Source: Sphaerodactylus townsendi
Lineage: Eukaryota
DNA length: 64,000 bases
Reading direction: 5' to 3'
Assembly: GCF_021028975.2 (NCBI RefSeq)
Contig: NC_059439.1
Coordinates: 10,974,001 to 11,038,000 of the forward strand
In this document: positions 6,970 through 43,258 of the stretch, piece after piece
Position numbering within the stretch: position 1 is the first letter of the stretch
Layout: the number at the start of each line of letters is the position of its first letter
Translations under genes and position numbers: made by a program
The notes under the pieces: generated by a model
Told to the model about the DNA's origin: nothing
Seen by the model: the letters and a program-made list of their open reading frames with translations, nothing else
Database searches by the model: none

Positions 6970-7250
6970 CTCCCATTACATGTCTGAAGCTCTGCACTGT
7001 TTGTGGGGTTTTTTTGTAATTTTAAGTGTTTTTTCAATTTTTGGCCTGCAGGGAACGCAGTTTTTAGACTAGCAGCACCAACATTTCATGGATTTGATGG
7101 GAGTCTCTCCTGATGATACCACCCAGGTTAGGTGAGGTTTGGTTCAGGGGGTCCAAAATTATGGACTCCCAAAGGGGGTCCTCCCATCTCCCATTGTTTC
7201 CAATGGGAGCTAATAGAAGATGGGGCTACACCTTTGAGGGTCCATAACTT
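6970..7250 (+). mobile_element. Fragment of the same non-autonomous hAT family as 47391-50048
   Basis: Shares ttttggcctgcaggg...ctagcagcacc...tttggttcaggggg...gagggtccataactt with 47570-47785. Confidence 0.65.
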
Positions 7251-7357
7251 AGGTGCTGCTAAGAGAAGAAATGTGGCTCCTGATGAGAACAGTTAAAACA
7301 TCCTTCTTTGGTCTCAGCCTGCAATTTGGAGTAAAGATGCATTTCGCTGGCTGCCTG

Positions 7358-12170: not shown

Positions 12171-12534
12171 AGAGTAAGAGGACCTCTCCTTCCTTTCTCA
12201 GCAGCAGAAAAGCTGGTTGGATCCCAACTGGATGGGTCCTTCACCTCAAACCTGAGGGGAAAAGGTGCTTCTATGGCCATTTCAAGAAGTAGGAACTGAG
12301 ATCCAAAGACTGCAAAGTGCCCAAAGTGGCTGCAAAGAGCCCACAGTAAGATGGTCCATGGAAATCACATACATACAAGGCCTCCATCTGGCAGTCCAGG
12401 ATCTAGACGACTTCTGAGGTACATCATCTTGCCCCGCTCTTCCCATGCTGTGATATACTTAAGCAATAAGGGGATCACAAGCAAAGCAGGGGAAAGGATT
12501 TGGGCAAGCACCTTGCATTGTGAAATCCCTGCAC

Positions 12535-12795
12535 TGTAGTGTGCTCATGAGATTTTGCTACCAAGTCTTTCTCACCAGACACAAGGTTAGAAAAGTGTGC
12601 TGACTCCAAAGCACTGTTTTGCTTTTGGGCAAGCCGAGTCCCCCTACCCTCAATTTCACAACCTGCAAAATGGCTGCACCACATGTAGGCCAAGAGTGAT
12701 GTCATAAAACACTTCTGATGTGGCAACACATGGAGTGGGTTTTGAATCTGAGAGGCCAGGCCACACCAGTCATTGAGTACAGAGGTCACCTGTGG
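12535..12795 (+). promoter_or_regulatory. Putative promoter and 5' UTR exon of copy A (CRE-like TGATGTCA overlapping TATA-like CATAAAA)
   Basis: TGATGTCATAAAA at 12697-12709, donor TGG|gtgagt at 12795/12796; the motif is kept in all three paralogous promoter copies. Confidence 0.55.
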
Positions 12796-12999
12796 GTGAG
12801 TGACATGGGGGACTAAAAACCTAGAAAGGAAGAGGTTCTGGGGCTCAAAATCTAACCAGAGGCCACAATAACAGACCCTCCCCCAGTACCAGGCATCTGG
12901 AATCCAAAAACCAGCATTTGGGCCAAATTTCCAAATATATCTGCTTTTATTAACCTCCCTCTCTCCTCAGCTACAGTGAGGACAAGGTCTTTTGGAGCT

Positions 13000-21804
<8,805 letters not shown>

Positions 21805-22499
21805 TGATATAAAAAGAGGAGCAACCTCTACCCCAAATGCCGGCTACAATAAACATGTTTATCAGACTTTTAAAATGTATTTATTTAGGTAATGAAAATG
21901 CTGCACTCCAGAGACCAGAGCGAGATGTCCCACAAGTACAAACAATATAATAAAACTCCAAGAAAACAGAAACATTATCAGAGCTAAACAGAAACCATTG
22001 GTGTTAAACCATGGGCAAAAAGCAGCCACTAAGCAGATAGGGAAAAATCCATAAAATAGTCATCAGGGTAGAAGCAGGGCATCAAACAACTGCAGAAAAA
22101 TGTAAAAACCATCAGCTTGAGTAAAATATATACAAACACAATCCCTGCCTCCACTGTCTCAAATTTTAGATAGTAACTTCCATGAGACAGGGAGCACACC
22201 TTGTAATATCTGTAAAGATAATAAATACATTGATGGTGGAATAGAGGGAGGGAGGAGGGATGGATGGATAGATCCCTCATGTATTCCTTTCATTGCCAGA
22301 AGGCAAGCCAACGCGGTGATAATCATTCCCCAACTGTGACCACCAAAAGCCCTGTGGATGCTTTCTGTTGGGAACGGAAACTGAGACTAGATGAGCCACA
22401 GCCTAATCCAGCAAAGCCATTTTTCTCTGGGTTGTATCCAGGCAGCCTTTCATCCACGCTTGCCCACTCTGCCTCCTTGCATAATACCCATCAGAAGGG

Positions 22500-24644
22500 T
22501 GGTGTAAGAGGAACTCTCCTTCCTTTTTCAGCAGCAGAAAAGCTGGTTGGATCCACTCTGGATGGGCCCTTCACCTCAAACCCTAAGGAACAAGGCACCT
22601 CTAGCGCCATCTCAAGATGGAGGAAATGATCCCCAAGACTGGAAGGTGCCAAAAGAGATTGAATGAATCCCTTTCTCACTTCACAGTAAGATGGTCCATG
22701 GAAATCAAATACACACAAAGCCTCCATCCCGCAGTCCACGATCTAGAAGGCTTCTGTGGTACATTGTCTTGTCCCACTATTATTGTATATCTATGTTGAT
22801 TATGTTTATTATCAGTATTTCTGCCTTATAACTTATGATGTTACAATTATTGATGTTCTTATTGTTTATAATGCTATATTTACAATGCTATGTTTGTTGT
22901 TGTTTATAATGATATGTTATAATGCTATGCTTATTGATGCTATGTCTATTGAAGCTGTGTTTGTTGATGTTTTGTTGAAGTTATGATTACTGATGTTTGT
23001 CATTATGCAGTTGTTGTTCACTGCCCTGAGCCCTTCAGGGGAGGGCAGTATATAAATCGAATAATATAGTACACTATTCCCACGATAAGGAAGCCACAAG
23101 GCAGGTGGGGAGAGGATTTGGACAAGCATCCAGAGTGAAATCCCTGCACTGCAGTTTGCTCATGGGACTTTGCTGCCAAGGCTCAACAGACAGGAGGCTG
23201 AAAAGGGTGCTGAGTCCAAAACCTAGTTTTGCTATTGGACAGGGTCCAATTTCACAACCTGTACAGTTGTTGCCCCAGAAACAGGCCAAGAGTGATGTCA
23301 TAAAACACCTTCTGATATGGCCGTAGAGGTGGTGGGTTCTGATGAGCCAGGAGCTTGACAGCCAGGCCACTTCAGTCATTGAGCACACAGGTCACTCTGA
23401 TACCTGCAGGTGAGTAATGCAGGAGAGTAGGAACAAAAAAAGGAATGGGTTCTGGGGCTCAAAGTCTAACTAGAAACCACATCCACAGACCTTGATGACT
23501 CCCGCCCCCACCCCGGTTGTGATTAATCAGTGACCAGCAGTGGTTGTGCCTTCTCAGAGAGATTGACTCTTTTGAGGTATACTTTAAAGCAGTGGTTCTC
23601 AACCTTCCTAATGCCGCGACCCTTTAATACAGTTCCTCATGTTGTGGTCACTGACCCCCAACCCTAACATTTATCCATTTTACAGATGGCGAACACTGAT
23701 GCAGAGTCTTAAGCGACCCCTGTGAAAGGGTCGTTCAACCCCCAAAGGGGTCCTGACCCCCAGGTTGAGAACCACTGCTTTAAAGGAAGCCAGAGTGGTA
23801 TAGTAGTTAAGAGCAGTGGACTCCAATCTGATGAACTGGATTTGCTTTCCTGCTCCTCCACATGAAGTCTGCTGGCTGACCTTGGGCTAGTCCCAGTTCT
23901 CTCAGCTCCACCTACCTCGCAAAGTGTCTGTTGTGGGGAGGGGAAGGGAGGGAGTTTATAAGCCGCTTTGAGACTCTATAAAAAAAGCAGAGTACAAAAT
24001 CTCACTACTTCTTCATGTGTTCCACGTCTGAGATTGGGCATTGAAAGTACAGGGACAAATCTGCAACCTGTTGAGTATTCTCTTCAATTTAAATAGAAGC
24101 AAATGGATGTGCTGGTCAGCAGGAGTAACTACATTTAAGACGGGAGACCAAAATGGGCAAGAAGCCTTCTTAATAAAATGCAGCGCGTATTTGGTTTCTG
24201 AACAATACAAAGCCCCACACAAAAGGAAGAGTTTTGTTGTGCTTATGCATGGTGTTTTCAGAGAGCTAAAGCCAGCTCCTAGGCTGTGCCATTTTGCTAA
24301 GCCAAAATGGTCCTGGGGAGTGACTATTCGCCTCGGGGTAATTTACCAACAGGCATGGGGCAAATAGCATCTCCTTAATTTCAGGGTTGAAACTGAGCTT
24401 ACCACCTTCTAGGTGGGGTCTGCAGCCCCTCCCTCCACCCTACAGAACACCTTTTAAGGCTAAAGAGTTGTCAACAGTTCCACAAAACTTTGTAGGTAAA
24501 AGCATTAATCCAAAATCCAGCATCTGGAATTTAGGAATATCTCCGTTTTTATTAATCTCCCCCTCTCTCCAGCTCTAGTGACAATTCCCAAATGCCTTTG
24601 GAGACATGGAAGCCGGTTTAGGGAAAATTTTCATACCACAAGAG
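22500..24644 (+). pseudogene. Relic 5' end of an older GARIN paralogue: upstream region, promoter, UTR exon (donor 23409/23410) and truncated, frameshifted first coding exon (24573-24644)
   Basis: Diverged homology to 12170-13040; TGATGTCATAAAA at 23293; acceptor ctctccag at 24572; ATG GAA GCC at 24606, then a 1-nt shift into FRENFHTTR (homologous to FTKDFDVAR); cut off at 24644. Confidence 0.7.
23590..23777. mobile_element. SPIN/URR1-like non-autonomous hAT element
   Basis: CAGTGGTTCTCAACCTTCCTAATGCCGCGACCCTTTAATACAGTTCCTCATG...AGGTTGAGAACCACTG, with perfect 8-bp TSD CTTTAAAG. Confidence 0.8.
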
Positions 24645-24645
24645 T

Positions 24646-24908
24646 TGTAGTGTGCTCATGGGACTTTGCTACCAAGTCTTTCTCACCAGACACAAGGTTA
24701 GAAAAACGTGCTGACTCCAAAACACTGTTTTGCTTTTGGGCAAGCCAAGAGTCCCCCTACCCTCAATTTCACAACCTGCAAAATGGCTGCACCACATGTA
24801 GGCCAAGAGTGATGTCATAAAACACTTCTGATGTGGCAACACATGGAGTGGGTTTTGAATCTGACAGGCCAGGCCACACCAGTCATTGAGTACAGAGGTC
24901 ACTTGCGG
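24646..24908 (+). promoter_or_regulatory. Putative promoter and 5' UTR exon now attached to copy B (recent copy of 12535-12795)
   Basis: Near-identical to copy A block; TGATGTCATAAAA at 24810; donor CGG|gtgagt at 24908/24909. Confidence 0.55.
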
Positions 24909-25109
24909 GTGAGTGACACGGGGGACTAAAAACCTAGAAAGGAAGATGTTCAAAATCTAACCAGAGGCCACAATAACAGACCCTCCCCCAGTACCAGGCA
25001 TCTGGAATCCAAAAACCAGCATTTGGGCCAAATTTCCAAATATATCTGCTTTTATTAACCTCACTCTCTCCTCAGCTACTATGACAATTCCAAGGTGTCT
25101 TTTGGAGCT

Positions 25110-25232
25110 ATGAAAGCCATTTTCACAAAAGATTTTGGTGTTACAAGAAGTGGACCCCTTCAGCGGCAGCTGAGAAAGGGGGAATATGGGTTCTTCAAAT
25201 ATTCCCCCATGCTCGAAAGTGATTTTGTTCAG
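25110..25232 (+). CDS. GARIN-like copy B, coding exon 1
   Basis: Acceptor ends 25075, ATG at 25110, donor CAG|gtaagc; 119/123 nt identical to copy A exon. Confidence 0.85.
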
Positions 25233-28200
25233 GTAAGCAGCTGGGAGAGAGAAGAAATGAACCATTTATTGGGATCAAATCAGCTTGCAAGCTGTACATA
25301 CAGATCTGAGGAACAGTCCAAACATATATGCACATTGGAGGGTTGCAGTCAGCACACTCCTGCACAACCTATGAACCACCAAGCCAGCACAGCCCAGAAT
25401 TTCCTGAAAATAACATTAAATATCAATGACAGATTTGAAAACAACAACAAAACATACACATTTTTTTTCTTGTAATCTTCTTTGCCGCCATTCTCTTTCA
25501 GTGAAAATCCTTTGAAGATTCACTGGACTTACTCCAGTCTAAGTCGATTGACTTAGTCATCCCCCCCCCCCGCCCCTGCTCACATTTGATTCCAGATCAT
25601 TGAACAGTGAAATGTAACCGTAATGTCCAACCCTTTTGAGACCCCACCGCTCACTTCCTTCCATTGCAAGAGCTGTCCGTTCACTCCAAACCTGTTTCTC
25701 ATTTTTTAACCATTTACTCAAGACAGAATCTGTCCTTTTACCCTCTGACTGTTGAGTTTAATCAGGAATCTTCAGTGAAAGTCTTTTAGCAAAAGGTTAT
25801 TGGAAGTCTGTTATCTCTCAGATCACTCTCCCCCCCCCCCCACAAATGCTTGTTGAAAGGAATAACTGCAAAATCTTTGAGACAGGACTTCCCCTAGCAG
25901 AAGCCATGCCTGCAACATATCATGGCCTTTTCTGCATGCACAGCATGCCCAATGCAGATTTTCCCAGTGGTCAAATCTTGCATTTTGGAAATTATTCTGC
26001 ACACCTCCTTTCCCCCTCAGTCGTTTTGGGGTTCCCCCCGAAGTCGTTTTGAGGTTTTCCATGTCTTTTCATAGGCATTTGTTCCACATGCTGCTGAAAA
26101 TGTATTATTTTTGATGGTGATGAGATGTCCATGACACAAAAGAACAACCTTCCCCCTTTTTTCTCTTTTGTGTTGGCGCTCTAGCGTCACGGGACAGTTA
26201 TATTTTGAAGCTGAAATTCAAAAATGTCTCAGCCTCCATTTCTACTATTGAGAACTACCAGCCCAAAATGGAAGCCAGAACAACTACTGGAGCAGGCGCC
26301 ATTACCTGAAGGAACAGAAACACATAGCCCCCACCCCAAGGAACCACATTTTCTGACTTAATTTCATCTGCAGGAGTCCCTTTATTGTTACTGCAGGAGT
26401 CCCTTGTCAGTTTCCTCCTCCAAAAGCAATTTCCCTTCTCAATTTCACTTGTTCCTAACTGCTAATGCAAGATGAAATTGACAACGCTGATATAATCGAC
26501 CTGGCTTGTGCCTGTGCCCTAAGATACATTTGCTAATGTTACAAAGAGGGGGGGAAATTAAACATTCCTTTGGAAAATGGAGAAGGGTGGGGGATGGGTG
26601 CTGCAGGGTGGGGGATGGGTGATTACATGGGTGCGAGGATAGGGGTCAGGTTTTTGATGGGGTGGAGAACTAAGGACTATTTCAACTTGACTGTGCGCTC
26701 AAGGGAAGCCTGTTCGGAAATAGATTTTTTTAAAAAAACATTGTAGTAAAAGTGCTTGAGAAAACAACAGCAGGGACATGAGGGTGAAATGTTTCTGCAG
26801 CCAAACGGAGGACAAAACATGTAGAATTAAAAGAATAAACAGAGCATTTGGTGCCAAGACGCGATCTGCATTACTTGTGCGAAAAGGCCCATGTTCTGCA
26901 GAAGGCCCATGTTCTGAAGAATTCAATAAGTGCTATTGAAACGAATGGCACCTAACTTGGAGGAAACCTGAATAGAACTGAGCTTTCAGGCTGAAAGGCA
27001 GTGTAGTGCAATGGTTAACAAAGATCCAGGAGAACCAGGTTCAAATTCCCAATTTTGCCGTGGAAGTTTGCTGGGTGACTATGTCAATCACACACTCTAA
27101 GCCTTAAACTTTATATAATAAAATGGATGAGAGGAGAGCAATATAAGTCACTTTGGGTCCACATTGGGATGACAATTGGAATATAATTGAAATAGAAGGA
27201 GCCCCGTGGTGCAGAGTGGTAAGCTGCAGTACTGTAGTCAAAGCTCTGTGTTCACAACCTGCGTGTGATTATGACTGAGGTCAGTTTCAGGTACCAGGAT
27301 CAAGGTTGACTCAGCCTTCATCCTTCCAAGGTACTTAGCTTGCTGAGCTTAAAGTGTAGGTGACTGGGGAAGGCCACGGAGAACACTCTGCAAACAACAC
27401 CTGCCTAGTGTGGGGCCAGGACCACGTTACTGGTCCTACACAGCTGAATTAGTTTAAGAAATAAAAAGCAAAAGACATAGTTAGAAATAAAAGCAAAAGA
27501 CATCTGCCATTAGAAACAAACAGTTTTTACTTCGCAGAATATAGATAAGATTACAGAATGTGAACTCTCCCGAGGGAGAGACACGCCCCCTTCCGGGTGG
27601 CTCTCGAGTGAGAGTCACACCCAGCATATGAAAGACCCCAGTCTTTATAGATACAGAATACAGACGTCACACAATCATCCCCTTACGTTTCACGTATTAA
27701 TCCACACCTCTTTCACGTGCTACAAGCATGTACCTTAAATCTCATTGGTCAGAATCTGTCTCCTGGTCACATGAAGACAGCCTCTATTCTAAGTATATTC
27801 TCATTCCTTCTGTTACTCAAACGCTGCTAGCGCATGCCCTCTCTGTCTGCCCATATGCAAAAGGGGCAGCCATAAAACTAGCTTGCTGTCTCCAAGAAAA
27901 AACCATTTTGCTAAGTTTCTCCCAGAGAGAGAGATGTCCTTAGGCAATGCAGGATTCCTTAGGATCATAAAACTTCCTTCTCCCAACATGATTCTAACAA
28001 CAATTATACCTTTGATTCTAAGACAATAGAATTATGATCAAATACTAATAAATGTGAATCACTCATTATCATTTCTGTGTTCATTTAACTATATAGAAAA
28101 ACACTTTGTAATTTAACTAATCACATTCATTTCTAACCCAAAAACCAAAGTTATAAAATGCATATGTCTGATGTCACGTTGGCCCTCTTGGTGACAAGAT

Positions 28201-31200
28201 CTCAAAGATGTTAACTTGCTTGCCTGCATCTTCACTGACAAGCTGGTAACATTCCTTTGACCTGCTGCAAAAATGCAGGCTTCTGCTGGTCACTATACAG
28301 AAGCTTCCATTTTGATTCTTCAAATCCTTGGTTCAGGCCCTTCCATGTTTCTTGATTAAATACAATTTATAGACATTCTGATCCATCTCCACACTAGGAA
28401 ATGTTGTGATGTGATATCACCCCATGGGTCAGTGAGGACCTGGTGGTTGGCCAGGGGACTACCTTTATCTTTCAACCCTATGTACCCTTTCTTAGGAGTA
28501 AGCTCCATTGAAACCGGTGGAACTTACTTCTGAGTAGGCACACCTAGATGGACTCATCTCAGCTGCCAATGCAGAAGCAGACACATTGGCCAGGCAATGG
28601 GGTTTCCATGTAAGAGTTTTCTGTGCCCCCCCCCCCAATGACTTCCCTTTTCCCTGTTTTTTGTCCTGCTGCACTACCAGAAGCTGTGCTGACGGGGGCT
28701 TTCTTACCCCAAAATGGTAATTGCCATAGAACTACAGCATTTGAAGAAAAAAAAACCTCAAAAAGTTATTCGGTGACATGGCAGGGAAAAGGGCACCTGT
28801 GTGTGGCTGAAAGCAGGAAAATGGCATCCATACGGGCAGGAACTTTGCAACACAAGGTGCCCTTTTCCATCCAAATGCTCTGCTAACGAACTTGATTGGC
28901 AGCCTTTCCAAACCTATTGGAACACAGCAGGGTTGAGAAAGTGCATAGTGGGAAAAGTCCGATTAGGGCTTGATGACACACAGATGCCTCACAAGAGGAG
29001 CTGCAGTTTGGAAGCCAAAAGCAGATTCCTCATGGAATCATCTGGAGAAGGCAGCCTCAGCTTGCTCACCTCCCTGGTAATGGAAAGTCACAACCAACTT
29101 ATGGCAACACTGTAGGGTTTTCAAGGCAAGAGACATTCAGAGGTTCAGACATTCAAAGGCTTTCACGGCCGGATTCAACTGGTTGTTGTGGGTTTTCCGG
29201 GCTGTGTGGCCGTGGTCTGGTAGATCTTGTTCCTAACGTTTGACCTGCATCTGTGGCTGGCATCTTCAGAGGTGTATCACAGAGGGAAGTCTGTTGCACA
29301 CTGTGTCTAGTGAGAAGGGAAAGTTTAGTGGGGTATATTGTCCATGTCCCAGGGTGGGGAACCAATCAGTAAGTATTTGGGTGGAATTTACTATGCAAAG
29401 GTGTGACTGATTGCATTGTATTGCGAGTGGGGTTATCAGTCCAGTCACTAGACACAGTGTGTAACAGACTTCCCTCTGGTGAACTAAATTAGTCTGTGCA
29501 CTCCAGCATATGCCAGGTGGGTGATCTTGGGCTAGTCACAGCTCTTTGGAGCTCTCTCAGCTCCACCTACCTCACAGGGTGTTTGTTGTGAGGGGGGAAG
29601 GGAAAGAAGATTGTAAGCCCCTTTGAATCTCCTACAGGAGAGAAAGGGAAGTTATAAATCCAAACTCTTCTTCTTCCACAGAGGAAGCTGCCACATGGAT
29701 CCCCACTAAAGTCTTGCTGTGCTCACAGAATAAAAAGGCAGGCAGAACATTTTCAGGCATAAACCCAGCAAACAGCTGGGTAAAAACAAGAACATTATTC
29801 CTTCCGCACTAATTGTAGTACTTGCCAAGGCTGAACCAAAACAAAAACAAAGAGAGATGGAGAAAATGCATAACTAATGTGCTTGATTTTTCATAATTAA
29901 TAATTTGCATAATATGCATGTTAGTCTGGCTGGACTTTGGAATCTGGGACACAGAAGTCCCGAGTTATACGATTATGTTGTTTCTATATATGCAAATCTT
30001 CCTTAGTGTGTTGTATGCTGATCAAAGCTAATTAAATTGGCTGAGATTATCCAGTGTGTGTGCATGCGTGCATCACGTTTTCTTTTCTCTGCAGCATGTG
30101 AATGGAAGGGCAGTGCTTTAGGCTTGGAGGGGGGTAGGAAGCTGAACTATAACCCACCCTCCACACAGGGCCGGAGCGAGGGGGAACTGCGCCTGGGGCA
30201 AGCATGTGCCCTGCGCCCCTGCCATGCCCCCGCCCCGCCCCACCCCACTCCCTTGGTGCTACGCCACTATCTCCACATATGGTACCTGACCCACTTGGCT
30301 GCTGCTCTTGAAACAACATCTGAGTTATTCAGGCATGATTTGGGCCAGGACAACACTTGCAAGAAATCATTAAAAAGCACCCTTCTGATAACTGCTGCCT
30401 AAGGAAGCAAACAACTTAAACCTGGCCCAACTGACATGGATCTGAACGGATCATTTCAAAGCAGCAAGAATAGGAGCGCAAGCAACTTGTAGGTTAAGGA
30501 GAAGTAACGTTTTGAGCAACAGAACAGCTGACTGGAAAGCATCCTCACTGCATTGTGTCTAGACCACAGGTGTCAAACTTGCGGCCCTCCTGATGTTATG
30601 GACTACAGTTCCCATCATCCCCTGCCATCAGGAGGGCTGCAAGTTTGACACCTATGGCAAGTCAGTCCTGCCAGTTAGCTGCAGGGGCTGGTTGGGGTTA
30701 CCTTCCACTTGCCATACCCCCACAAAACCTCTCCGCCAATCACTTGAAAAGTTTTCCACCTTTAAACTGAAGATTCGACATTTTGAAAGTAATAAGGCAA
30801 CAAACTAGTGAATTGAGAGCTAAACACATGCTGCCACTTATGAATAAACAAATGATCGCCAAGGGCACCGGGGGGAGGAATGGGTGCTAACCAGCCATCA
30901 AGGACACACAACACTCACACCCCTTCAGCCCACAGCACGGGGGTCCTGCTGGAAGCTGGGACTCGCCTCCTCTTTCCCTCCCCTGTGGTGGGACAAGCAG
31001 AGCAAGCAGCAGACTCACCTCCCACAGCCCCAGTTCACTGCGGTGGCGGGTGAGTGGCAGCTTTGGTGCCTAGGACACCCCCAATCCTTGGAGTGGGAAT
31101 TAGTAAGGAAACCTCATCCGTCTGAAGTACTGGGGAAGGACAAGACTGACAGTCAGTGCAGTTCTCAGTAGCATAAAATGCTGGGAGTGAAGGACTCTAC

Positions 31201-34200
31201 ATTGTTTCCTACCTCAATGACAGAGAAGGGTTTATCAGTGAGTCAGATAGCTAGAGGGGGTCAAGACACTGGGCACCTTCTCTCTACTGCTCTGACACTA
31301 GCCTTTTGATGTGTAGATTGATATTCTCAGGGAACGTCCTTCCTCCTGCTTCTCCTCCTCTCTCCCACCATTCTTACACACACCTTCCATCCCGCACTAT
31401 GTGTGCAGAGAGATGGAGACAGTATCTCTCACCATCCAGCTAGTCAGATTATAACAGAGAACCTCTCTCTCCACTTTTCTATCCAGAATGGAGTTCACTA
31501 ATAAAGACTTTTGAAGGAGGACATTGATATAGTAGGCATCGCAGAGACATGGTGGAATGAGGAGAACCAGTGGGATGCTGTTATCCCAGGTTACAAGCTG
31601 TACAGGAAGGTTAGGACAGGGTGTATTGGGGGTGGTGTTGCCCTCTACATCAAAGAGAGCATAGTGTCACATAAAATGCAAGGGGAGCTGATTTCCCTAC
31701 AGAATCACTGTGGATATCAATACCAGGTGTGAAGGATGGTCTAATATTAGGAATATATTATCATCCCCCTGACCAAAGTGCACAAGAGGATTCTGAGATG
31801 GAAAAATAAATTAGAGAGGCCAACAAAAGCAAAAACGTAGTGGTAATGGGTGATTTCAACTATCCCCATATAAACTGGAAAAATGCATGTTTTTGTCATA
31901 GTAAGGAGAGAGGATTCTTGGATATGCTAAAGAGCAGATGGTTGTGGAACCAACCAGTGGAGAGGTGATCCTAGATCTAATTCTATGTGGGACCTAGGAA
32001 CTGGTATGGGAAGTCAGTGTTGTTGAGCTGATAGGGAACAGCGACCACAACGCTGTCAGATTCAGTATCTCTGCATGCGAATAAGTGACAAATACTAATG
32101 TATTTATCAAAAATGAGGGGGATAGTGTGCAGGAAGCTGAAAGGGAAAAACAAGAGAGTCAAAACTGTCCAAGATGCTTGGAGGTTATTTAAAAACACAG
32201 TAATAAAAGCTCAGCCGGAATGTGTTCCGCAGGTTAGGAAAGGCAGCACCCAGTCCAAAAGAAAGCCACCATGGTTAACAAGGGAGGCTGAGGAAATTAT
32301 TAGAAAAAAGAAGATGTCTTTTAGAAAATGGAAGTCCAGCTTGACTGATGAACAATACGAGAAGGAACACAAATGGTGGCAAAAGAGAAGCAAGTTAGCT
32401 GTAAGGAAGGCAAAAAAGGGTTATGAGGAACGCATGGCTGTGAACATCAAGACCAGCAACAAGCAGTTCTTCAAGTATATCAAAAGTAGGAAGTCAGCTA
32501 GGGAAGCGGTAGGCCCGTTAGATGATGAAGGAACAAAAGGTGTGCTAAAGGATGACAGGGAGATTGCAGAGAAGCTGAATGAATTCTTTGCATTTGTCTT
32601 CACCCAAGAGGAGGTGAGGAAAATTCCTGCACCTGAACCATGCTTCCTAGGAGGTGTATCCTAGGAGGTGTAAATTAGTAGAATCTATCGTTAAAGATAA
32701 AATTATAAAACATGTAGAAAAGCAAGACCTGCTGAGGGAGAGACAGCATAGTTTTTGTAGAGGGAAGTCCTGTCTTACAAACTTACTAGAGTTCTTTGAG
32801 GGTGTAAACAGACATGTGGATAAGGGGGAACCAGTGGACATTGTCTACTTGGATTTCCAAAAGGCTTTTGACAAAGTTCCTCACCAGAGACTGTTGAGAA
32901 AACTCAGCAATCAAGGAATAAGAGAGGAAGTCCTATGGATTCAAAACTGGTTGAGGAACAGGAAACAAAGGGTGGGTGTAAATGGGAAGTTCTCACAATG
33001 GAGAGATGTAGGGAGTGGTAGCCTCGTCCACTTGCTCTTGCAGTTGGAGGAAGGCCATGCTTCGGCTGAGCCGAGGCCTGGAGAGGGCCACCAGGGAAAT
33101 GGATTCCGCCAGCTCCTCTGGTTCAGCAGATGCCGGGAGAGAAGAGACGAAGCCCTCTTTGGGGGCTACTGTACCCTCCTCATACTCCGAATTCAACGGA
33201 CCCCGGAATCTCAACTTCTGCATGCCGAAAGACATCAGAGTCCAACAGGATCGGATAGCGTGGCTGGTTGAAGACCACGTTTACTCCGAGGAAATGTAGA
33301 GAGTCTGCATAATGTAAGGAACCTGAAAGGACCAGACTTAAAGTAACTGGAACAGTTCTTTATTTCTTAAACTTCCAAGATGCACAATACAGGAAATGCA
33401 GACTCTGACCTTTCCCCACCAGACCGCTGCTTTTACGAGCTTCTCTGGCCCCCGCCCACAGCACAAAGTAAAGTCCCCCAGAACTCCAACCTCCAAAGTA
33501 GGTTCTCACGCAAACAGAAAGTAAGACTCCACACGCATACAGTAAGCACAGATAGGCAGCAAGGTTAACAGCAATCCTGGGCACGCAGCCCAGTCCAAGG
33601 AATGTTACCAAGGCCAGGCTGGTGGACAGAAAACAGAAATCAACCCACAACCTTACAATATGTTAAGTCCGTAACTATGCTAAATGTTTTACAAGTTGTT
33701 CAGGTTATATCTTTGGATTTAGACAGATTACTTATCAACCTCTGTCAAACAGCAATATTTATAACTGTAACATCTGTTGGTATCTAAATATGTTCCTATA
33801 GGACTAGGTATGTCAGAGTTTCTCTTCGCCTGGAAACCCTCATTCAGCCAATGCAAAAAATGACACCTACAATATTTGTTTATAAATACTTGATACTGAT
33901 ATTTAATAAATATGGCAGGCAAAGTCTCAGTAAATCATAGAATGATAGAATCATAGAGTTAGAAGAGACCACAAGGGCCATCAAATCCAACCCCCTGCAA
34001 TACAGGAACACACAATCAAAGCACTCCCGACATATGCTGATCCAGCCTTTGTTTAAAAACCTCCAAAGAAGGAGACTCCACCACTTTCTGAGGCAGCGAA
34101 TTCCATTGTCAAACAGCCCTGACGGTCAGGAAGTTCTTCCAAATGTTTAGGTGGAATCTCTTTTCCTTCACCTTGAATCCATTACTCCGTGTCCTAGTCT

Positions 34201-37200
34201 CTGAGGCAGCAGAAAACAAGCTTGCTCCCTATTCGACATGACATCCCTTCAAATATTTAAACATGGTTATCATGTCACCCCTTAACCTATGCTTCTACAG
34301 ACTAAACATCCTCAGCTCCCTAAGCCTCTCTTCGTAGGGCATGGACTTCAGACCCTTTACCATTTTGGTTGCCCTCCTCTGGACCCGCTCCAGCCAGTCA
34401 ATATCCCTCCTGTACTGCAGTGCCCAGAACTGTACACAATATTCCAGGTGAGGTCTAACCAATGCAGAATAGAGAGGTACAATTACATCCCTCGATCTTG
34501 ACACTATACTCCTATTGATACAGCCCAGAATCACATTGGCTTTCTTGGCTGCCGCATCACACTGCTGACTCATGTTTAGTTTATGGTCTACTAAGACTCC
34601 CAGATCTCTTTTGCATGTAGTGTTGTCAAGCCAGGTGTCACCCATCCTATATCTGTGCATTTCATTTTTTCTGCCTATGGAATGTGGAATCAGATTGCCC
34701 TATTTTAACAAAGCAATATGATACGGCCCTAAATTTTATATCTGTTACCTCTAAGGAACAAGCTGTAATTTAATCAGCAAAAATTACATGTAAGATACAC
34801 TGGACACCATAGCACCTGGTAAAAGGCTAAGTAAAGTCTCTAATTGCTGTAATTATTTTTTAAGAAGCTGTTTGGCACTCAGAGAAAGAAAGACAGGGGG
34901 GTGAGGGGGGATAGCTGGATGGCTTAGACATATTCCATGTTGAAAAGCTGGTCAACCGTGCATTCCTTCTCCTCTGTCCCTCAGATCACCAAGCAAGGAG
35001 GTCCAATAGAGGTCACCAACGAAGACACACGTATGACTGTTGGGATTAGCTTTACAAGCCCAGCTCTCCTGATGCCAGATGTCCTGCTTGTGGCGCGGCC
35101 CATTTACATCTCAGAAGATCCCACTCAGCCGGATGATACCAAGTACCACCCTGATCGCCAAGTCAAATATGAACTAAGCAGGTGAGTCTTTCTACCTGTT
35201 TCCACAACAAGTTCAGACAGCATCCTCAGAACAGTTCACCACGGGAAGCAAGAGAAGCAGGACTCACGGGAAGTTCCTGGAATGATGCCACCATTGCTGT
35301 GTTACCATTATTAGGTTTTTGTGGTAATTATCAGATCTGTTAAAAAGGGACACAGGGTAAGAAGTATCATGTTTTCCAAGCACTGAGATTGATATCAACT
35401 CTAAAAGCACCCTTAGGGCTCAGCTAGACAATACATGTGACATGGGGATGTCTGTGGGTGACATGAGGATGTTTGGAGGTCCACATAGAGAGTCAAAGCA
35501 AGCACGTTTCCATGGCAGAGTAGGCATTCAAACCTGGGTTTCCCAAATTCCAGTCTCACGCCTCAACCACTATACCAGACTAGCTCTGTGGGAACTGTGG
35601 GCCTACTGCAAAAGTTTTTTTTAAAGCACCAGGCATTTGTAGAAGAGACTCCCTTCAGGTCTATAGGACATTCATTCTTCAGCCTTTGGTCTAGTACCAT
35701 GTTACACATTCTCTTGGTAGTTGGTAACTTTCTCAGAGCATTGTTGTTGTGAGAAAATTGTGTGTGTGTTTATTTGGGGTCTTTCTTGAGAAGAAAAACA
35801 AAATATAAATACATACAGTATAAGCCTTGAGGTCCAATTCAAACTCTTTAGCATCTGAGGAAGCCTCCAAGGAGACTTGCACAATTTCTGCAGCACTACC
35901 CAATTCTCCTTGAGATTTCACACTGCCCTTTAAAAAAATAAATAAAGGAAGTGATCAAGATTAAAACGAGAATGTCAAGCCAGCGGTCTTCATGATCATC
36001 CACCTTCAGAACTGAACTACAAATGAGTAGATTCACTTGAACTGGTAATAAAAACAGGGATTTCAAAAAACTGTGACCACTTCAAACCCCACCTAATAGC
36101 ACAGAGTACTAAGTGGCAGCTGAAAAGCTTACATGAGCTCATGCCCCGTCTCTGAAATTACACCCTGGCAGGTTGTTCCCTTTATGCTTAGTGAAGCTGT
36201 CCATCCTCGATGCAGAAAAGCAGCAGCTGAGAGTCAAACTGGCAAACGGCCGCATCTTCTACCTCCAGCTGTGCCCTGAATCCTACAGAAAAGAACACGT
36301 CTTTGACTCCTGGATCAGGACCATCCAATTACTGTGGCCGCCCTCAGATAAAATATCTGAGATAAAGGAGGAGGTGGCCATCAAGTCCAGCCAAATCCGG
36401 AGATCTCCACCAAAAGTGAGTCCTCCATGAAGGCCAGCCACTTGGGAGAGCGGGTAGGGAACCAAACAGGAAGAACAAGAAATGAGGAGAACGGAGTGGA
36501 GGTGCTTGCATTTGCTGACAGAGAAAGCATCTAATACCAGAGTCAACAACTAATTTCTGAAAGGGTTACAGAATAAACAAAATTGGCACCACACTTTCAC
36601 CACACCCAAACTAAGATACAGGCAAAGGGATCTAGGTTTCTTTCCTCCCCAGGCTGAGCAACAGCAAGGGGCCAGTGTGGTATAATGGTTACAGTGTCTA
36701 CCTAGGATCTGGGAGAACCAGGATCAATCCTCACCCGACAATGAAGGTTACTGGGTGGCCTTTGACCACTCACTTTCCAAGCACAGCCTACTTTCCAGGG
36801 AATAAATCAGATAATGGGGCTGTGTAACATACCTACTGGACAGGCTGGCTTTGGAAGATTGCATTGGTGCACTCACCAGCTTGGACTACTCATGAAAATA
36901 GCATTCTAGATCATATGACCTTGTATCTGGAGGTAGACTTGGAACCCCTGCACTTAGCAGAGATGGAGAGGCCTGCTATATCCAAGAGAATTCAGCCCCA
37001 CCCTGTTGGTCAACACAGCAGTTTGCCTTCCAGGTGGTAGGTCCCTTGAAGCAGCACCTGCCTGAAAGGCCTGTGGCAAACCCATTCCAACAGGTTCCGG
37101 TAAGAGGGGAACACCTACAGCCATGGGTGGCTCAGAGACTGAAGGTTAACACCAGCTTGGCTGGGTAGAGGCAGGGCAGTCTCAGAAAGAAGTTGGAGGG

Positions 37201-40200
37201 CAAGTCCCGAGGCTGGCCAGTATCAGTCACACCCCGAGGTGTAGCTCCAAGGGGGGGGGGGTGCGACGCACTGGGTGCGTGCCTCTGTGGAGGCGTGGGG
37301 GTGTGTGGCATAGTGGGACGGGGGCGTTCCGGGGCGGGACGGGGCAGGGCAGAGGACGCAACAGTGCACCAGGCACTTTCCCCCCTTGCCACGCCTCTGG
37401 TCACACCTGATTGGTAATAGCTCCTATCAGTCAACCCACAAAGGTGAGGCAACGCTCAGGGAGGCAGGAAGAGGAAAGGGTGGTCATATCCCTGGGAGTC
37501 TCCCTCATAAGGTCAGGGACGCAGGTCTGGGAAGACAGGTTTGCCTTCCTTTTAGTTACTTGGTTACACAGGAAGACAATAGAAAGTCAGCAAGAAGATG
37601 ACTTTGAGTATTATTAACCTCTTCTCCTCTCTATAAGGCCTGTGGAGGGACTCTGGAGGATGTGTTGGCCCCATCCAACCATTACAGTGTGGCAGACACT
37701 CATACCTTTCACAGTAGACAGGGAATATCATTTCTAAATATTTCCTATCCTCAAGGCAAAAACAAACATATCAGAGAAAAGTTCTAAATGTACCCCAGCT
37801 ACGCTAACTTTCTACTTGCAGAGGGTTTTCATAATGTACTCAAAATGGAGGGATATGTGGGTCTCCTTCAAAGGACTTGTTAAGCAGGGACAGACTGATT
37901 ATTTGACTGATCAGGTAAGTTAACAGAGGGCTGTGGCTTTCGAGGGTTGCTAGCAGTCAGAAGAGAGCTGAGCCAAAGCCAAGCAACCGCTCTTGGACTG
38001 CAGGACTCACTTGGCCCAGACTCTTCCACAGGAGCAATGCTCAGTATCAGCTCACTGGTGGCTTCCCGCCACATGGCCACCGGAGGCAACAGGTGAGTCA
38101 ATGCCCATCATCAGTCCTGCTGCTGTGGTCTGAGTATCCCCCACAAAGCAAGCTTGCAGTATCAAAGGGGTCACTCAGTTTGCCTGTTTCCTGAACCGTT
38201 TAAACATCCCAGTCCACAGAAACAACCGTGGCTTTCCTTCTTTTATGTAATATATACACTTATGTTTGCTGATGATCTTGGTCTTGCACCCAGAAACCAG
38301 GTAAATCAAGGGATGGAACCTCTGTTCCAGCCCATACTGAAGGAGAAAGCATTACAGAGGTCTTTCCTGCATCTCCAATTGAGAAAAAAGTGACTGAGGT
38401 CAGTGGCAGTCTTGGACAGAACCTTTGTTACAGTCTTCACTGGGAAAGAAAGGGTTAAAGAGCCCTTTGGTGGATCTCAGCTTGGGCACAAGTGGCAAAG
38501 GTCAATAGAGACCTTGGAGAGAAACTTTGCTGCCATCCACATGAGGGAGAAAGCATCAGAGAGCCCTTTCATTGGTCTTAGGTTGGAAAAAGGTAACGGA
38601 GGTATAACTCAGTACCTTGGGTGCAGGGGCTGTGTTGGGGACCCCAGACCTTCAGTTAATTAACCTCAGATCAAGAGATTAGGGCAGGGAGACAGAAATC
38701 TGCTTTCTTGGCATCCCACCGTGCTGATTGCCGTGTGATCTATTCTCTCCCTCCCAGACTCTGTCTCCCAAGAGCCCAACCAAGAGAGCAACTGCTGGGA
38801 ATGAGCAAACCACCACCACAAATCTCAGGGGCGGGAAACGTAAGAAAAAACCAAGCAAGGCCAAGTCTCCTGAGAGCCCGGGCAAAGCCCCAGATCCAAC
38901 CCTACCTCCCAAGGCAGAGCAAGGCGCTGAGCTTGTCAGTCCCGTGCCTCCGCAGACCAGGGAGATGACAGAAGTGTTGGAGGAGAAGCTGGGAGAGAGA
39001 AAACCCTCTGGCAGGAATCCCACTGGCGAGAAAGGGAGGCAACAGAGGAGCTACCCCACCAGCAGGTACCAGTAGAGCACTCTGTGTGGGGGAGATCATG
39101 GACACGTGCGAGGTTTCCAAGAAAAGACTGGCCAACACATGAAACTGCCTTGCGCTGAGTCTACCAAGAACAGCATTATCTTCTCTGACTAGCAGTCACT
39201 CTCCAGGGTCTCAGGAAGAGGTGCTTCACATCACCTGCTGTGCGATCGTTTTAACTTGAGATGTCTGGGATTGAACCCATGACCTTCTGCAGCTGATGCT
39301 CTGCTAGTGATCCTTTCCCCCTGATAAATAAGGCACACTGCTGTTGAAACTGGGCTGTGGCCAAAACTGGTTAACCCGAGTAGTATAATCCCTACTGCCT
39401 TGTGCAATGTTTAGGCATCTTTTCACATGTTGTGACACAGCAGTGTGATGTTGCTGACTGTCCTTGGCAGGGATAGGTGAGAAACCACAGAATGTAACAA
39501 CAACACAGGTAAGCATACCACAACACTATGAGGGAGAGAGGCAGAAGATTCTGCTCCTTTTCAATGGTAGTCCAGGGTGAAATGCAAGATGCTGGCGCAG
39601 TTATTAAATCTGTTTTGACTTCAATCAGCCCTCAGTGCAAACACAAAAGCCAGCAAAAGGTTTTGTGTTTCCTTTGCAGTCCTGTATTAAGGTGTGTGAC
39701 ACTCACATGTGACACAAATAATAAGAAGCATCACAAAGGAAAATTATCTTCAGTTAAACTGATAAAACATTGGACTAGCAGAGTGCTCAAGGCAATGGCA
39801 CAGAACAATTTACCAGGTGTGTGTGCTGCTGAGAAATAAAGTTACACACTGAGCCTTTTTATCTTGGCAAACAAATATGAGTCCGTTATTGTAAGATATA
39901 CTATGGTGTTACCCCTGCTATATTTCACTGTCTTCTGTGTCTCCTTCTTTATTTGGTGTGTTATTTGGAATAAAATTCCAAAAACCCTTTTATTTCCCCT
40001 TTTATTCTATTCTTTTCTTGGTAGCATGTATGAGAGGTAAGGCAAATGGATGGCATTTATGGAACTAAGGAAAATCAGGTGGAAGTCCCAATATTTAATT
40101 GAACCAAAATAAATTTTTATTTATAACTGGTAGGTAACTTCAAGGTTCCAAACAAATTATTTTCAAAAATTAAAATAAAATATAACTGAGGGGCCAACTA

Positions 40201-40523: not shown

Positions 40524-43258
40524 CAGCACAGATTCTCAATCTGACACACTCTGTCTCCCCCCCCCCCTTTTCTTTCTTCCTCTGCTCATAAAGCCCAATC
40601 ACAGCTCTCCTGCCTTTTATGGCCACTCCCTCTCGCTCTTCAATCCAACCATAAGATTGTTACATATGCCATTTTAGGCAAGGCAGAGATAGGATTCTAA
40701 CCTAGTCTAACTAGCTAGGACGGAGGGATTGGCAGGGTCCATGTCTATGTCTTAAAAGGAGAGGAGAGAAGCTGCCAGTAAAAAGGAAGGAAGATTCCTT
40801 GGCAGAAGCAATCAGCACATCAAAGGGTTCCCCTTTCAAGTCTGAGGCTAACAGGCAGCGCAAAGTCCTTCACTTCCAACACAATCAGTCCTCAGTGCAA
40901 ACTTCAAATCCAGCAAAAGTTTTTTTGGTTTCCTTTCCAGTCTGGGATTTACTTCTACATGCACTTACCTTTCCTGTGATTAGGTTCAATTGTAAATAAC
41001 AAAAATACATGTAAACCAACCCAACCAAACACAATTTGGCTGGGAGGCCATCCTCAAGTGGTTTAAATCAGTACAATTCACATCGTACAAGGTTTTTGTT
41101 AAAATTACAACATGCCTGACTAAAGCACTGAACATCCCAATGTAAACACTGTTAGATGGACTAGATCTCTCTCTCTGCTCTTAATTAGGACCATTCAAGA
41201 TAACTGTCAAGATGGTTGAAGTTAGTGATTCAAATTTCTCTATAAGCCAGGTCAGGGAGGAGCACTGCCCAAGGGTGTGTATATCCACAAAGAGGCAAAG
41301 TGGGGACATGTCCATGATGTCCACGTGAACAAGGGCAGTTTTATTAAATGGGTTTTTATATATGTAACTAAAGCTTGTATTTTGATGCACAGTGATTAAT
41401 ATTTATAATTTGATTAAAGTTTTTGGAATATAATTTGAGCTTTTCTTAACTGACAGTGACAATTCCATATACAAGGTGTTATACCCCTTTTAACCTTTTT
41501 GGAGGTACTGGGTTGAAAGTTCCCCCCCCCCTCCTTTTTTGGTTCATTTTCACCTTTACATGTGACACAAATAACAAGTGTCACATAGGAAAATGATCTT
41601 CAGGTAAACGCCAATGAAACAATGCAGACATGAGTTTGAGGATATGTGTATAAAGTCTGTGGCTGTTCAGACATATTAAGAGAGGAGGATTATGGGTTCA
41701 AAAATGACTGATTCTCCCCCACCCCATTTCAGAAGATCCATGAAGGAAAGCCATTCTAGGCGAAGCAGGTCTGAACAGAGAGGTAAGAGCTGCCCAGAGC
41801 AATTTATTTGATATCAATAAAAGAAAAGCTGGTGATTCTGTGAAATCCTACAGTAGACCATAATCAGTAGGCCATAAACACCACATACAGTCAGAGATTA
41901 AATGAAATTTAATTGAATTTTTTTTAAAAAATGAAATTTTAATTGAAATTTCAAACTCTGAACATCCCTTCATTTAGGGCAGCATTGTTCAGTTACTGCT
42001 TCCTGTAAAAGGAAGACAAACAGTCTCATTGGCCAAGGAACAATATGCTGGAAAGCGTCATATGTGGTGAACAATACATCATCTTAGCAATAAGAAAATA
42101 CCAGTGCCGTCTTGCCTGGTGATTTTTCCTTGAACACATTTTGGAAAGAAAGATCTCTGGCTAGGTCCAGCTGTCCATCTCCATTAACAGAAGACATTTC
42201 CATCAGCAAAATGGGACTTCCTCACCTCTAAGCTCCCTCAGCAGCCCAAAATACTTCCTAAAATGCTATTCCAGGCAGTAGCCCTTCAGAAATGGCATGA
42301 AGGCTGAATATATTTCATTTACAGCTGAAATTACTGGCGGATGAAGACGACCTTGACAGTTCCATAGTCCAGAATTTGCCTCTGCCTGCAACGCGGGGCA
42401 TCCAATTCTGGTTTTGCAACAATTTGATTAGTGGAGTTGTATCTTCATCTTCCCTTTCCTCCCTTTATTCTTAATTGTCAACCTGCCACGAGGGATGCCA
42501 TTCCTCCCTTTTCATCAGAGACAATCCAGGGTATGCCAGCACCCGAGGCAGACAAACCAAATGGCACCACTCCATGACAGAAACGGCTGCCAACTTTTTT
42601 TCCCCTCCAAAATCTGAAGCCTGAGATGGGTTGCCCTACCTGGTCTACTGCTTTGGTTGGCCCAGATTTAGAGCTATCTGTTTCTCCTGTGTGCAACCAA
42701 GCCTCCACAAACTTACTTGAAATATATTGAATTTCAACCCTTTTTTTTTTGCTTGATTTGTTTATTCAGACATTTATACTTCGCTTTTCTCCTCAATGGG
42801 GACTGAAATTGGCTTATAACATTGTTCTCCCCTCCACCATTTTATCCTCATAACAACAACCCTATGGGAAAGCAGACTAAGCTTCAGTGATTGGCCCATA
42901 CCAAGCTTTTGTCGGAGGGAGGGGATTCAAACTGGGCTTCCCAGATCCCAGACCCTACACCGTGTTGGATTTCTGTTTTCTTTTTATTCCTCTGTCCTCA
43001 GCACAATCCTTTCACCTCTTACATTCATTGATCCATTCATATTCCACACAACTCCTCCCTACCACTGATTTCACTCCTCCATTGAAATCACAATCCTCTC
43101 TTCCTGGTCATTAATTCTCACTCTCTTTTTCTCTCTCAACTTTTTCAGGTGCTGTCTGGCAACCCAGCAAATTTGTTTCTCTCATGAGATCCTGTGTCTG
43201 GGGCAACTCCAGGCAGAATAAACAAGGTGTCAGATCTCGGTCCAAAGAGAAGAAATAG
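25110..43258 (+). CDS. FAM71/GARIN-family gene, copy B; join(25110-25232,34985-35181,36172-36415,38758-39065,41733-41782,43149-43258), 343 aa
   Basis: Same exon layout and phases as copy A (123, 197, 244, 308, 50, 110 nt). FAM71 motifs [23 protein letters not shown] and [38 protein letters not shown] at 43256-43258; AATAAA cluster at about 43320. Confidence 0.88.
25924..26890. mobile_element. Non-autonomous DNA transposon (TIR ggccttttc..gcac); the 3' part recurs at about 45280-45470
   Basis: Inverted termini and an in-window second copy of the 3' segment. Confidence 0.45.
27198..28470 (+). mobile_element. Sauria-type SINE split by a solo LTR
   Basis: 5' part 27198-27408 and 3' part 28394-28470, ending in an accttt tail. 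Confidence 0.7.
27409..28393 (-). mobile_element. Solo LTR (ERV or Gypsy)
   Basis: TGTGG...CCACA termini, 4-bp TSD CTAG, inserted in a SINE. Confidence 0.75.
29150..29478. mobile_element. Penelope-like element remnant
   Basis: Same terminal sequence as the 9130 and 60975 copies; minus-strand hammerhead with core GAAA changed to CAAA. Confidence 0.7.
30166..30269. mobile_element. GC-rich hAT MITE
   Basis: CAGGGCCGGAGC...GCTACGCCACTA; 7/8 TSD (c/t)CTCCACA. Confidence 0.55.
30567..30656. mobile_element. Short hAT-type MITE
   Basis: caggtgtcaaacttgcggccctcctgatg ... catcaggagggctgcaagtttgacacct inverted arms. Confidence 0.6.
31495..33015 (+). mobile_element. CR1 LINE ORF2 fragment (AP endonuclease and partial RT), internally deleted
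   Basis: [38 protein letters not shown] and [14 protein letters not shown] motifs. Confidence 0.9.
33016..33657 (-). mobile_element. Tf1/sushi-like LTR retrotransposon 5' end: LTR 33313-33657, self-priming site 33300-33310, start of a putative gag ORF
   Basis: TGTAAGG/CCTTACA termini; minus-strand AATAAA about 33358; an 11-nt PBS complementary to the LTR sequence at 33396-33406. Confidence 0.7.
33935..34675 (-). mobile_element. CR1 LINE 3' end
   Basis: [17 protein letters not shown]...[17 protein letters not shown]; (ATTCTATG)-type tail. Confidence 0.9.
34985..35181 (+). CDS. GARIN-like copy B, coding exon 2
   Basis: Acceptor ccctcag|ATC, donor AG|gtgagt; within ORF 34937-35185. Confidence 0.9.
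36172..36415 (+). CDS. GARIN-like copy B, coding exon 3
   Basis: Acceptor ctggcag|G, donor AAA|gtgagt; ORF 36173-36430. Confidence 0.9.
37234..37399. mobile_element. GC-rich hAT MITE, nested in LTR-like sequence (about 36920-37712)
   Basis: C(C/A)GAGG(T/C)GT(A/G)GC TIRs; perfect 8-bp TSD GTCACACC. Confidence 0.7.
38758..39065 (+). CDS. GARIN-like copy B, coding exon 4 (K/P/S/E-rich, includes KRKKKPSK)
   Basis: Acceptor ctcccag|ACT, donor AG|gtacca; ORF 38728-39075. Confidence 0.78.
40486..40522. repeat. (TG)n microsatellite
   Basis: Direct reading. Confidence 0.95.
41733..41782 (+). CDS. GARIN-like copy B, coding exon 5
   Basis: Acceptor tttcag|A, donor AG|gtaaga; 50 nt as in copy A. Confidence 0.8.
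43149..43258 (+). CDS. GARIN-like copy B, terminal coding exon ([23 protein letters not shown]...)
   Basis: Acceptor tttttcag|GT, TAG stop, AATAAA about 43320. Confidence 0.8.

Follow-up and report, generated by a model that had tools for sequence, protein, structure and literature searches.

How did one GARIN gene of the gecko Sphaerodactylus townsendi come to have two 5′ ends, one old and truncated and the other young and shared with its sister gene? The question was raised by a stretch of 64,000 nucleotides (nt) of contig NC_059439.1 (assembly GCF_021028975.2, positions 10,974,001 to 11,038,000, forward strand), here called the window, in which positions are counted from the first letter. 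The window contains two intact GARIN/FAM71 genes, gene A and gene B. Sequence comparison indicates that gene B is a chimera. A young near-copy of the 5′ module of gene A stands at its front, and a more diverged copy of the same module, here called the relic, lies directly upstream. The coordinates of all features are collected in Table 1.

Young A-Type Block in Gene B

The window was compared with itself by BLAST, which aligned 12535–13368 with 24646–25444 (841 columns, 1165 bits). Within this young block (24646–25431 in B versus 12535–13355 in A), 26 substitutions were counted in 766 aligned columns (3.4%). Six A/B intron segments showed 185 substitutions in 1064 columns (17.4%; Fisher p = 1e-22). 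In addition, the young block contains 4 indels and a patch that does not align (13133–13179 versus 25243–25255). The copied block is contiguous, with promoter, exon, intron and exon in the same order and orientation, and its net gain is about 505 nt. The block was also considered as a retrocopy or a transposon insertion; this was rejected, since the promoter and the intron are both retained.

Coding exon 1 of A and B is identical at 119 of 123 nt, whereas exon 2 is identical at 37 of 66 amino acids (DNA divergence 26.9%). The divergence of exon 3 (12.5%) is below that of exon 2. One segment of gene B is far nearer its paralogue than the rest of the gene. An earlier note on this DNA had called the two 5′ regions near-identical and had given the same exon 1 and exon 2 identities, which were reproduced exactly. 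It had named uniform divergence along both genes as the finding that would speak against it, and a step from 3.4% to 17% was seen instead. The words "fresh copy" in that note suit a young copy of A type; they go too far for a block that is about 96–97% identical and has indels and a patch that does not align.

At the right edge of the block, 3 differences were found in 133 columns before the edge and 8 in 56 after it (p = 0.003, for a boundary chosen after looking). No A/B homology was found between 13370–15229 and 25445–34917 in the self-comparison of the window.

Exon Trees

The exon 2 tree comprised 11 gecko rows. Gene A grouped with the A-type proteins of Gekko, Heteronotia and Paroedura (support 85/82), and gene B grouped with the B-type proteins of Gekko and Heteronotia (80/84). 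A Sphaerodactylus-only clade was rejected by the approximately unbiased (AU) test (p = 0.0018). For exons 2–4 without a suspected conversion patch in exon 3, the two clades received supports of 88/86 and 94/93, with an AU p of 0.0499. The exon 1 tree comprised 13 rows; three models without exon 1 were left out, and exon 1 of gene B was added from the window. The Sphaerodactylus copies formed one clade in this tree (98/91), and the A/B-type genes of geckos formed one gecko clade.

Exon 2, and less firmly exons 2–4, thus places A and B in separate clades that appear older than the gekkonid split. The conflict between the exon 2 and exon 1 trees is what points to an old gene pair sharing a young 5′ end. 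The earlier note had foreseen that exon 1 would join A and B and that the following exons would show an old split. The trees of exon 1 and exon 2 agree with it, and exons 2–4 follow less clearly. Exon 1 of these gecko GARIN genes is unusable for inferring orthology.

Relic 5′ End Upstream of the Young Block

Older blocks of homology to gene A were found upstream of the young block (12174–12441/22504–22781, 12489–12877/23107–23491 and 12901–13008/24507–24614). The upstream flank of A differs from the relic flank by 47 substitutions in 264 columns (17.8%) against 22504–22778 and by 5 in 43 (11.6%) against 23107–23149. A 297-nt insertion with a 7-nt target-site duplication (22775–23071) lies upstream of the relic promoter, and the form without it, the empty site, was seen in 3 of the 4 sequencing runs described below. 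The relic promoter and first exon (23150–23491) are 20% diverged from both A and young B, and the relic donor is in phase with the exon at 25076. Sequence depth was very high over 23472–24023 in the relic first intron. The relic coding exon 1 ends at 24645, inside codon 14. Its 73 nt carry two 1-nt deletions, one before the ATG and one after it.

In total, the relic differs from A in 151 of 761 columns (19.8%), compared with 17.4% in the A/B introns (p = 0.20). Because the age of the relic matches that of the A/B split, the relic is probably the native 5′ end of gene B itself. A 25-nt promoter motif is identical in the three copies (starts 12688, 23284 and 24801). This identity is no evidence of current function, because little decay is expected at the age of the relic.

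The promoter positions of the earlier note (12697, 23293 and 24810), its donor after 23409, its acceptor end at 24572 and its ATG at 24606 were all recovered. So was its observation that the relic is cut off exactly where the young block starts (24645/24646). The relic frame is broken as it had described, by two 1-nt deletions and not by one.

The relic also keeps an ATG at 24589–24591, five codons before 24606. This ATG aligns with the start methionine of several related gecko models and is replaced by GTG in the young module, so that gene B may have lost part of its N-terminus in the transfer.

Junction in Other Organisms

The assembled DNA-type contigs of 4 of 13 listed runs (X3, X4, X6 and X8) were compared with 22000–27500. 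Single contigs bridged the junction between relic and young block in X3, X4 and X6, representing three organisms and two studies. The X3 contig covers 23947–24694 with 5 differences. The X4 and X6 contigs both cover 24354–24694 with 8 differences, and have 1 and 2 gaps, respectively. The bridging contigs reach 49 letters to the right of the junction and at least 290 to the left, and each has its own substitutions. One organism-A sample may be the source of the assembly; organisms B and C differ from it. In X8, cover over the relic was patchy, and a contig fitted only from 24646, with 86 letters left over. This is as expected of the A locus and is neutral on the junction.

The earlier note had asked whether the junction was a misassembly, and the contigs of the relatives answer this. 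Near-identical repeats are prone to misjoins, the support comes from contigs and not from long reads, and the junction was not shown in X8. Nevertheless, an assembly error is scarcely credible when three organisms from two studies have bridging contigs with their own substitutions and the X8 cover is patchy.

Outside the young block, the X4 and X6 contigs differ from the window by 1.6–3.6% (two repeat- or paralogue-like records left out). They carry the junction at this distance, and therefore the junction predates the splits between the window organism and the X4 and X6 organisms. Relic pieces in the relatives differ by 2.0–3.3%, which is similar to the intron pieces (1.6–3.6%). Compared with the window, the junction contig is one base longer in X4 and of equal length with two gap letters in X6. 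Because of this extra base and these gap letters (gap positions not listed), one relic deletion may be younger than the junction.

Three further observations were made in these contigs. In organism C (X6), 23197–23492 is covered by two equal-length versions of the relic promoter with common ends. One has 7 differences, and the other has 38 differences and 6 gap letters and is too colinear for an A-type module. At about 22255–22267, a 2359-nt contig of X4 has its end and the fit of an X8 contig breaks off; this is possibly the edge of a duplicated B unit, and a microsatellite lies at the same place. At 24947 and 22461–22496 the window differs from all X3, X4 and X6 cover, and its bases there may be private alleles or errors.

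Direction of Transfer and Third Copy

The distance from A to the relic is 20.4% inside the block and 17.8% in the flank. Because these distances are alike, gene A looks unreplaced, and the simplest reading of the alignment is that the young block is A-derived. Where A and young B differ, the relic matches young B at 11 sites, A at 9 and neither at 3, against 94 of 447 columns that join A and young B against the relic (a few sites are alignment-dependent). Judging from these counts, no relic-like residue is left in the young block. A derived Phe in the young exon 1 is common to 2/2 A-type gekkonid proteins, and is absent in the one B-type protein and in 7/7 outgroup rows.

A third copy, known from the protein record P0002, lies outside the window. 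Its exon 1 is identical to B at 40 of 41 residues and to A at 38 of 41. Compared with B, it is identical at 66/66 residues in exon 2, at 50/50 and then 25/31 in exon 3, and at 98/102 in exon 4. The predicted first exon of P0002 is of the young type, yet it keeps 8 nt that are missing in A and young B and present in the relic. At 25415, one of the X3 versions agrees with neither A nor B, and the same holds for all X6 cover. More than one conversion seems implied, because of these discordant sites (the 8-nt loss and 25415). The idea of one fresh copy of A, held in the earlier note, is right about the A-type module. It is too simple for these sites and for an exon 1 of P0002 that is nearer B.

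Transfer in the opposite direction, with the young module as B-lineage sequence and A as the recipient, was also weighed. The exon 1 of P0002 would fit it, as would one exon 1 residue that matches the B-type Heteronotia protein and two private deletions before the ATG of A. We regard it as very unlikely, since the distance from A to the relic is no smaller inside the block than in the flank, the derived Phe is of A type, and the two modules in B would be left unexplained.

The depth in X3 was 28.7 in the A 3′ flank and 28–32 in B intron 1; it reached about 59–62 across much of the relic and 93 in exon 1 (three contigs). Depth is not copy number, and these values only hint at a relic in the third copy as well, with an allele or a sex-linked copy as the alternative. 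Relative to B, P0002 is altered in the conserved end of exon 3 and differs in frame in the last exon, and it may be decaying.

A possible second A/B conversion patch was noticed in exon 3 (5/82 differences). In this exon, which encodes the RAB2-binding domain, two residues are present in 3/3 Sphaerodactylus A/B copies and in 0/8 other gecko rows. A permutation test on the third codon positions of the patch was not significant (p = 0.42).

Proposed Mechanism

In one-sided invasion, homologous copying proceeds from one end of a break and end-joining closes the other. From the anatomy of the locus, the junction in three organisms and the conflict between the exon trees, we infer the donor, a single event, the order of its steps and the expression of its product. 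With modest confidence, we favour a break in exon 1 of B that was repaired by copying A, with an in-register right end and an end-joined left end. The break would have occurred at codon 14 of B. The downstream end would have invaded the homologous exon in A, which has the same orientation and lies about 10 kb away, and about 505 nt would have been copied back through the intron, first exon and promoter of A. In the other direction, B sequence would have been converted for about 280 nt into intron 1. With no homologous partner on the left, the copy would have been closed by end-joining at 2 nt of microhomology, which would have left the native promoter and 13 codons of B stranded upstream. Later, B would have been duplicated with the junction (P0002, according to the depth hints), and further conversions would have reshuffled the module. 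The A-type promoter would now drive B, with the old promoter as an optional upstream start.

The left join connects non-homologous positions, and the event is therefore not a plain in-register conversion. An in-register replacement would have both ends homologous; here the left end is non-homologous and the old module is kept. The 2-nt microhomology (24646–24647) presupposes that the native exon resembled the young one beyond the break. The junction is also spanned by a 9-nt repeat (24463 and 24640), which was not significant, as 7.7% of random positions have one. End-joining at microhomology has been reported for long conversion tracts that end without homology (PMC5104497). Copying from one broken end followed by end-joining is proposed here because the pattern is as in the mouse cell reporters described in that report.

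The earlier note had suggested ectopic recombination or duplicative conversion. Copying as the origin of the chimera agrees with our data, and an in-register left end does not. It had also held that a native end already broken was rescued. The divergence of the relic (19.8%) fits a native 5′ end; that it was broken first is not borne out, because the truncation is the junction itself and earlier damage cannot be demonstrated from it. The break may be the event itself.

Two other histories would produce a similar layout. In one, the segment of B from 23150 to codon 14 was duplicated head to tail, and the downstream copy was then overwritten in register from A. The same junction and an in-register right end are predicted by this history. 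Repeated conversion is evident anyway (P0002 segments and the possible exon 3 patch), and two deletions in a 73-nt relic exon would fit a longer-dead relic. On the other hand, the basic anatomy would then take two events. At the third and seventh base from the junction, young B agrees with A and not with the relic, and it has no relic-like excess (11 versus 9). The 1-kb insertion in the relic intron must postdate the duplication or have been lost from the second copy. We consider this history possible but doubtful.

The other history starts from a three-gene array A, C and B, in which a deletion ran from codon 14 of C to the promoter of B, and the 5′ end of B was separately homogenised with A. 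It appears improbable, although deletion at a microhomology is a simple step and P0002 shows that the array has grown in this genus. Gene C would have to match the A/B split in age, and no leftover exons of a third gene were found within the window. No third type was seen in other geckos, with one A-type and one B-type each in Gekko kuhli and Heteronotia and one A-type in Paroedura, in searches of limited sensitivity. A protein search with exon 1 returned 3 proteins and no additional orthologues. Among the top hits of a search of 50% representative proteins, and among 6 unnamed proteins that were read, no further full-length protein of A or B type appeared.

Several points weigh against repair by copying A. 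The 2-nt microhomology arises by chance in about 16% of cases (calculated) and depends on the inferred continuation of the native exon. Because the right edge lies in A/T-rich sequence and the next A/B homology appears only at 15230/34918, an in-register right end is suggested only. The protein sites diagnostic for direction split 1:1; a Leu of exon 1 in the P-M-x-E-S motif matches the B-type Heteronotia protein and not the two A-type proteins. The 8 nt kept by P0002 mean that at least two events are needed. As several conversions are implied, 3.4% dates the latest exchange and not necessarily the junction. The p of 0.0499 for exons 2–4 was reached only after removal of the suspected exon 3 patch, and the test did not reject the Sphaerodactylus-only clade when the deposited last exons, whose reading frames are mixed, were included (AU p = 0.19). 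The deposited B model lacks exon 1, and an upstream ATG private to B opens a frame with a stop that overlaps the main start. Moreover, the head-to-tail duplication predicts the same junction and right end.

If repair by copying A is true, the locus is a readable fossil of recombination between old paralogues in which a promoter was added and not swapped. The displaced 5′ end is still present, so that the donor, the age and the junction are open to study in living relatives.

Possible Function of the Two 5′ Ends

The relic first exon (ATG 23342) could, by its sequence, splice to 25076. The product would be in frame and have 34 extra residues. Splicing at the relic acceptor would give a frame that ends after 38 codons. 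Gene B has an out-of-frame upstream ATG at 25081, which is absent in A; its 10-codon frame (25081–25113) ends at the stop mentioned above. This ATG would likely lower the translation of B. In the 25081 region, part of the cover in X3 and X4 has the alleles of the window, and the X6 cover lacks both changes by which the ATG arises.

We speculate, while thinking it rather unlikely, that an old testis gene acquired a second, sister-derived promoter in one repair event, kept the first and uses both for two isoforms, and that several dwarf geckos have this arrangement, which was also copied into another paralogue. Just as tentatively, the old first exon might add 34 residues and bypass the upstream ATG of B, and the A-type promoter might give the short form. 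If true, one-sided recombination would have produced a dual-promoter gene with two isoforms in nature, and this gene would have been inherited.

Comparison with Known Systems

HBB/HBD chimeras are products of crossover or conversion between homologous segments (PMC4041002). As in gene B, the 5′ flank and promoter of the sister gene were acquired and the own 3′ coding part was kept. They differ in that their joins are homologous, whereas the left end of gecko B is non-homologous, about 505 nt were gained and the old promoter remains upstream. The primate genes SIGLEC11 and SIGLEC16 (PMC5701461) resemble A and B in having one region that was repeatedly converted and trees that are region-specific. 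Unlike in gecko B, no stranded native 5′ end is mentioned in the abstract of that report. Expression effects of the globin chimeras were measured (PMC4041002) and a functional reason, paired receptors, was proposed for SIGLEC11/16 (PMC5701461). The gecko case opens no new class of system. Non-canonically terminated long-tract conversion (PMC5104497) is like our proposal in its one-end homologous copying, microhomology end-joining and net gain. There, breaks were induced in mouse cell reporters and copied from the sister chromatid; in the gecko, it would be a germline event between paralogues about 17–20% apart, inherited by several organisms. Gaining the promoter of a sister gene is already known, and the gecko variant differs in keeping the old module. 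No paper on gecko GARIN genes was found among the entries listed (20 of 157 in one search, none of them a reptile study), in searches that left subscription journals and supplements outside their scope.

Mouse GARINs show testis-biased expression and function in sperm-head shaping (PMC11236154). The RAB2-binding domain PF12480 of mammalian GARIN/FAM71 proteins is also present in gecko A and B. Testis expression and sperm-head roles are demonstrated in mice only.

Gene Models and Other Features

The named S. townsendi protein records P0003 and P0001 match gene A and gene B, respectively. Each gene has six coding exons with open frames. The open frame of A has 278 codons, and that of B, counted from 25110, has 343, or 378 with one predicted extra exon. 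PF12480 was matched in exon 3 of A (E = 2.9e-18, 66.2 bits) and of B (E = 1.1e-18, 67.6 bits), above the curated cut-off of 22, and in 2/7 exon pieces. The deposited model of gene B (P0001) places the start in the end of intron 1. Two deposited Gekko kuhli models likewise omit exon 1 and start in the end of intron 1; all three are predictions.

Table 1. Positions of the GARIN gene features and of the 5′ modules in the window.
Feature	Position	Strand	Remarks
Gene A upstream flank	12174–12534	+	Colinear at old divergence with relic upstream flank
Gene A 5′ module, likely donor	12535–13355	+	Promoter motif 12688–12712, first exon to 12795
Gene A coding exon 1	12971–13122, ATG 13000	+	After short intron, before intron 1 start
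Gene A coding exons 2–6	15297–15493, 16196–16439, 18216–18313, 19345–19394, 21680–21804	+	P0003 match
Relic upstream flank	22504–23149	+	Broken by 297-nt insertion 22775–23071
Relic promoter and first exon	23150–23491	+	Motif 23284, ATG 23342, donor after 23409
Relic first-intron stretch	23492–24506	+	About 1 kb, unmatched in A's short intron, includes high-copy repeats
Relic acceptor and truncated coding exon 1	24507–24645	+	AG ends 24572, ATG 24606, no donor
Non-homologous junction	24645–24647	.	Codon 14 joined to promoter position
Young A-type module in B	24646–25431	+	Promoter motif 24801, first exon to 24908, intron
Gene B coding exon 1	25076–25232, ATG 25110	+	Within young module, then intron 1 start
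Right edge of young block	25389–25444	+	Identity to A fades in register
Gene B coding exons 2–6	34985–35181, 36172–36415, 38758–39065, 41733–41782, 43149–43258	+	P0001 match
Gene B optional predicted exon	38294–38398	+
Possible second A/B conversion patch, exon 3	36208–36289 vs 16232–16313	+	5/82 differences

Exon 4 of gene A (18216–18313) falls about 210 nt short of its counterpart in B, and a stretch present in A-type gekkonid proteins is missing from it. The short exon is a probable in-frame deletion in A. The long intron 1 of gene B contains broken reading frames at 31505–33270, which we take to resemble the endonuclease and reverse transcriptase of a long interspersed nuclear element (LINE). 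On the minus strand, 62120–62297 matches the start of intron 2 of both A and B at about 70%; it was considered as a further GARIN gene piece and rejected, as no recognisable GARIN exon adjoins it. At 47540–49880, diverged copies of one repeat, which also matches 7009–7254, are intermingled in direct and inverted orientation.

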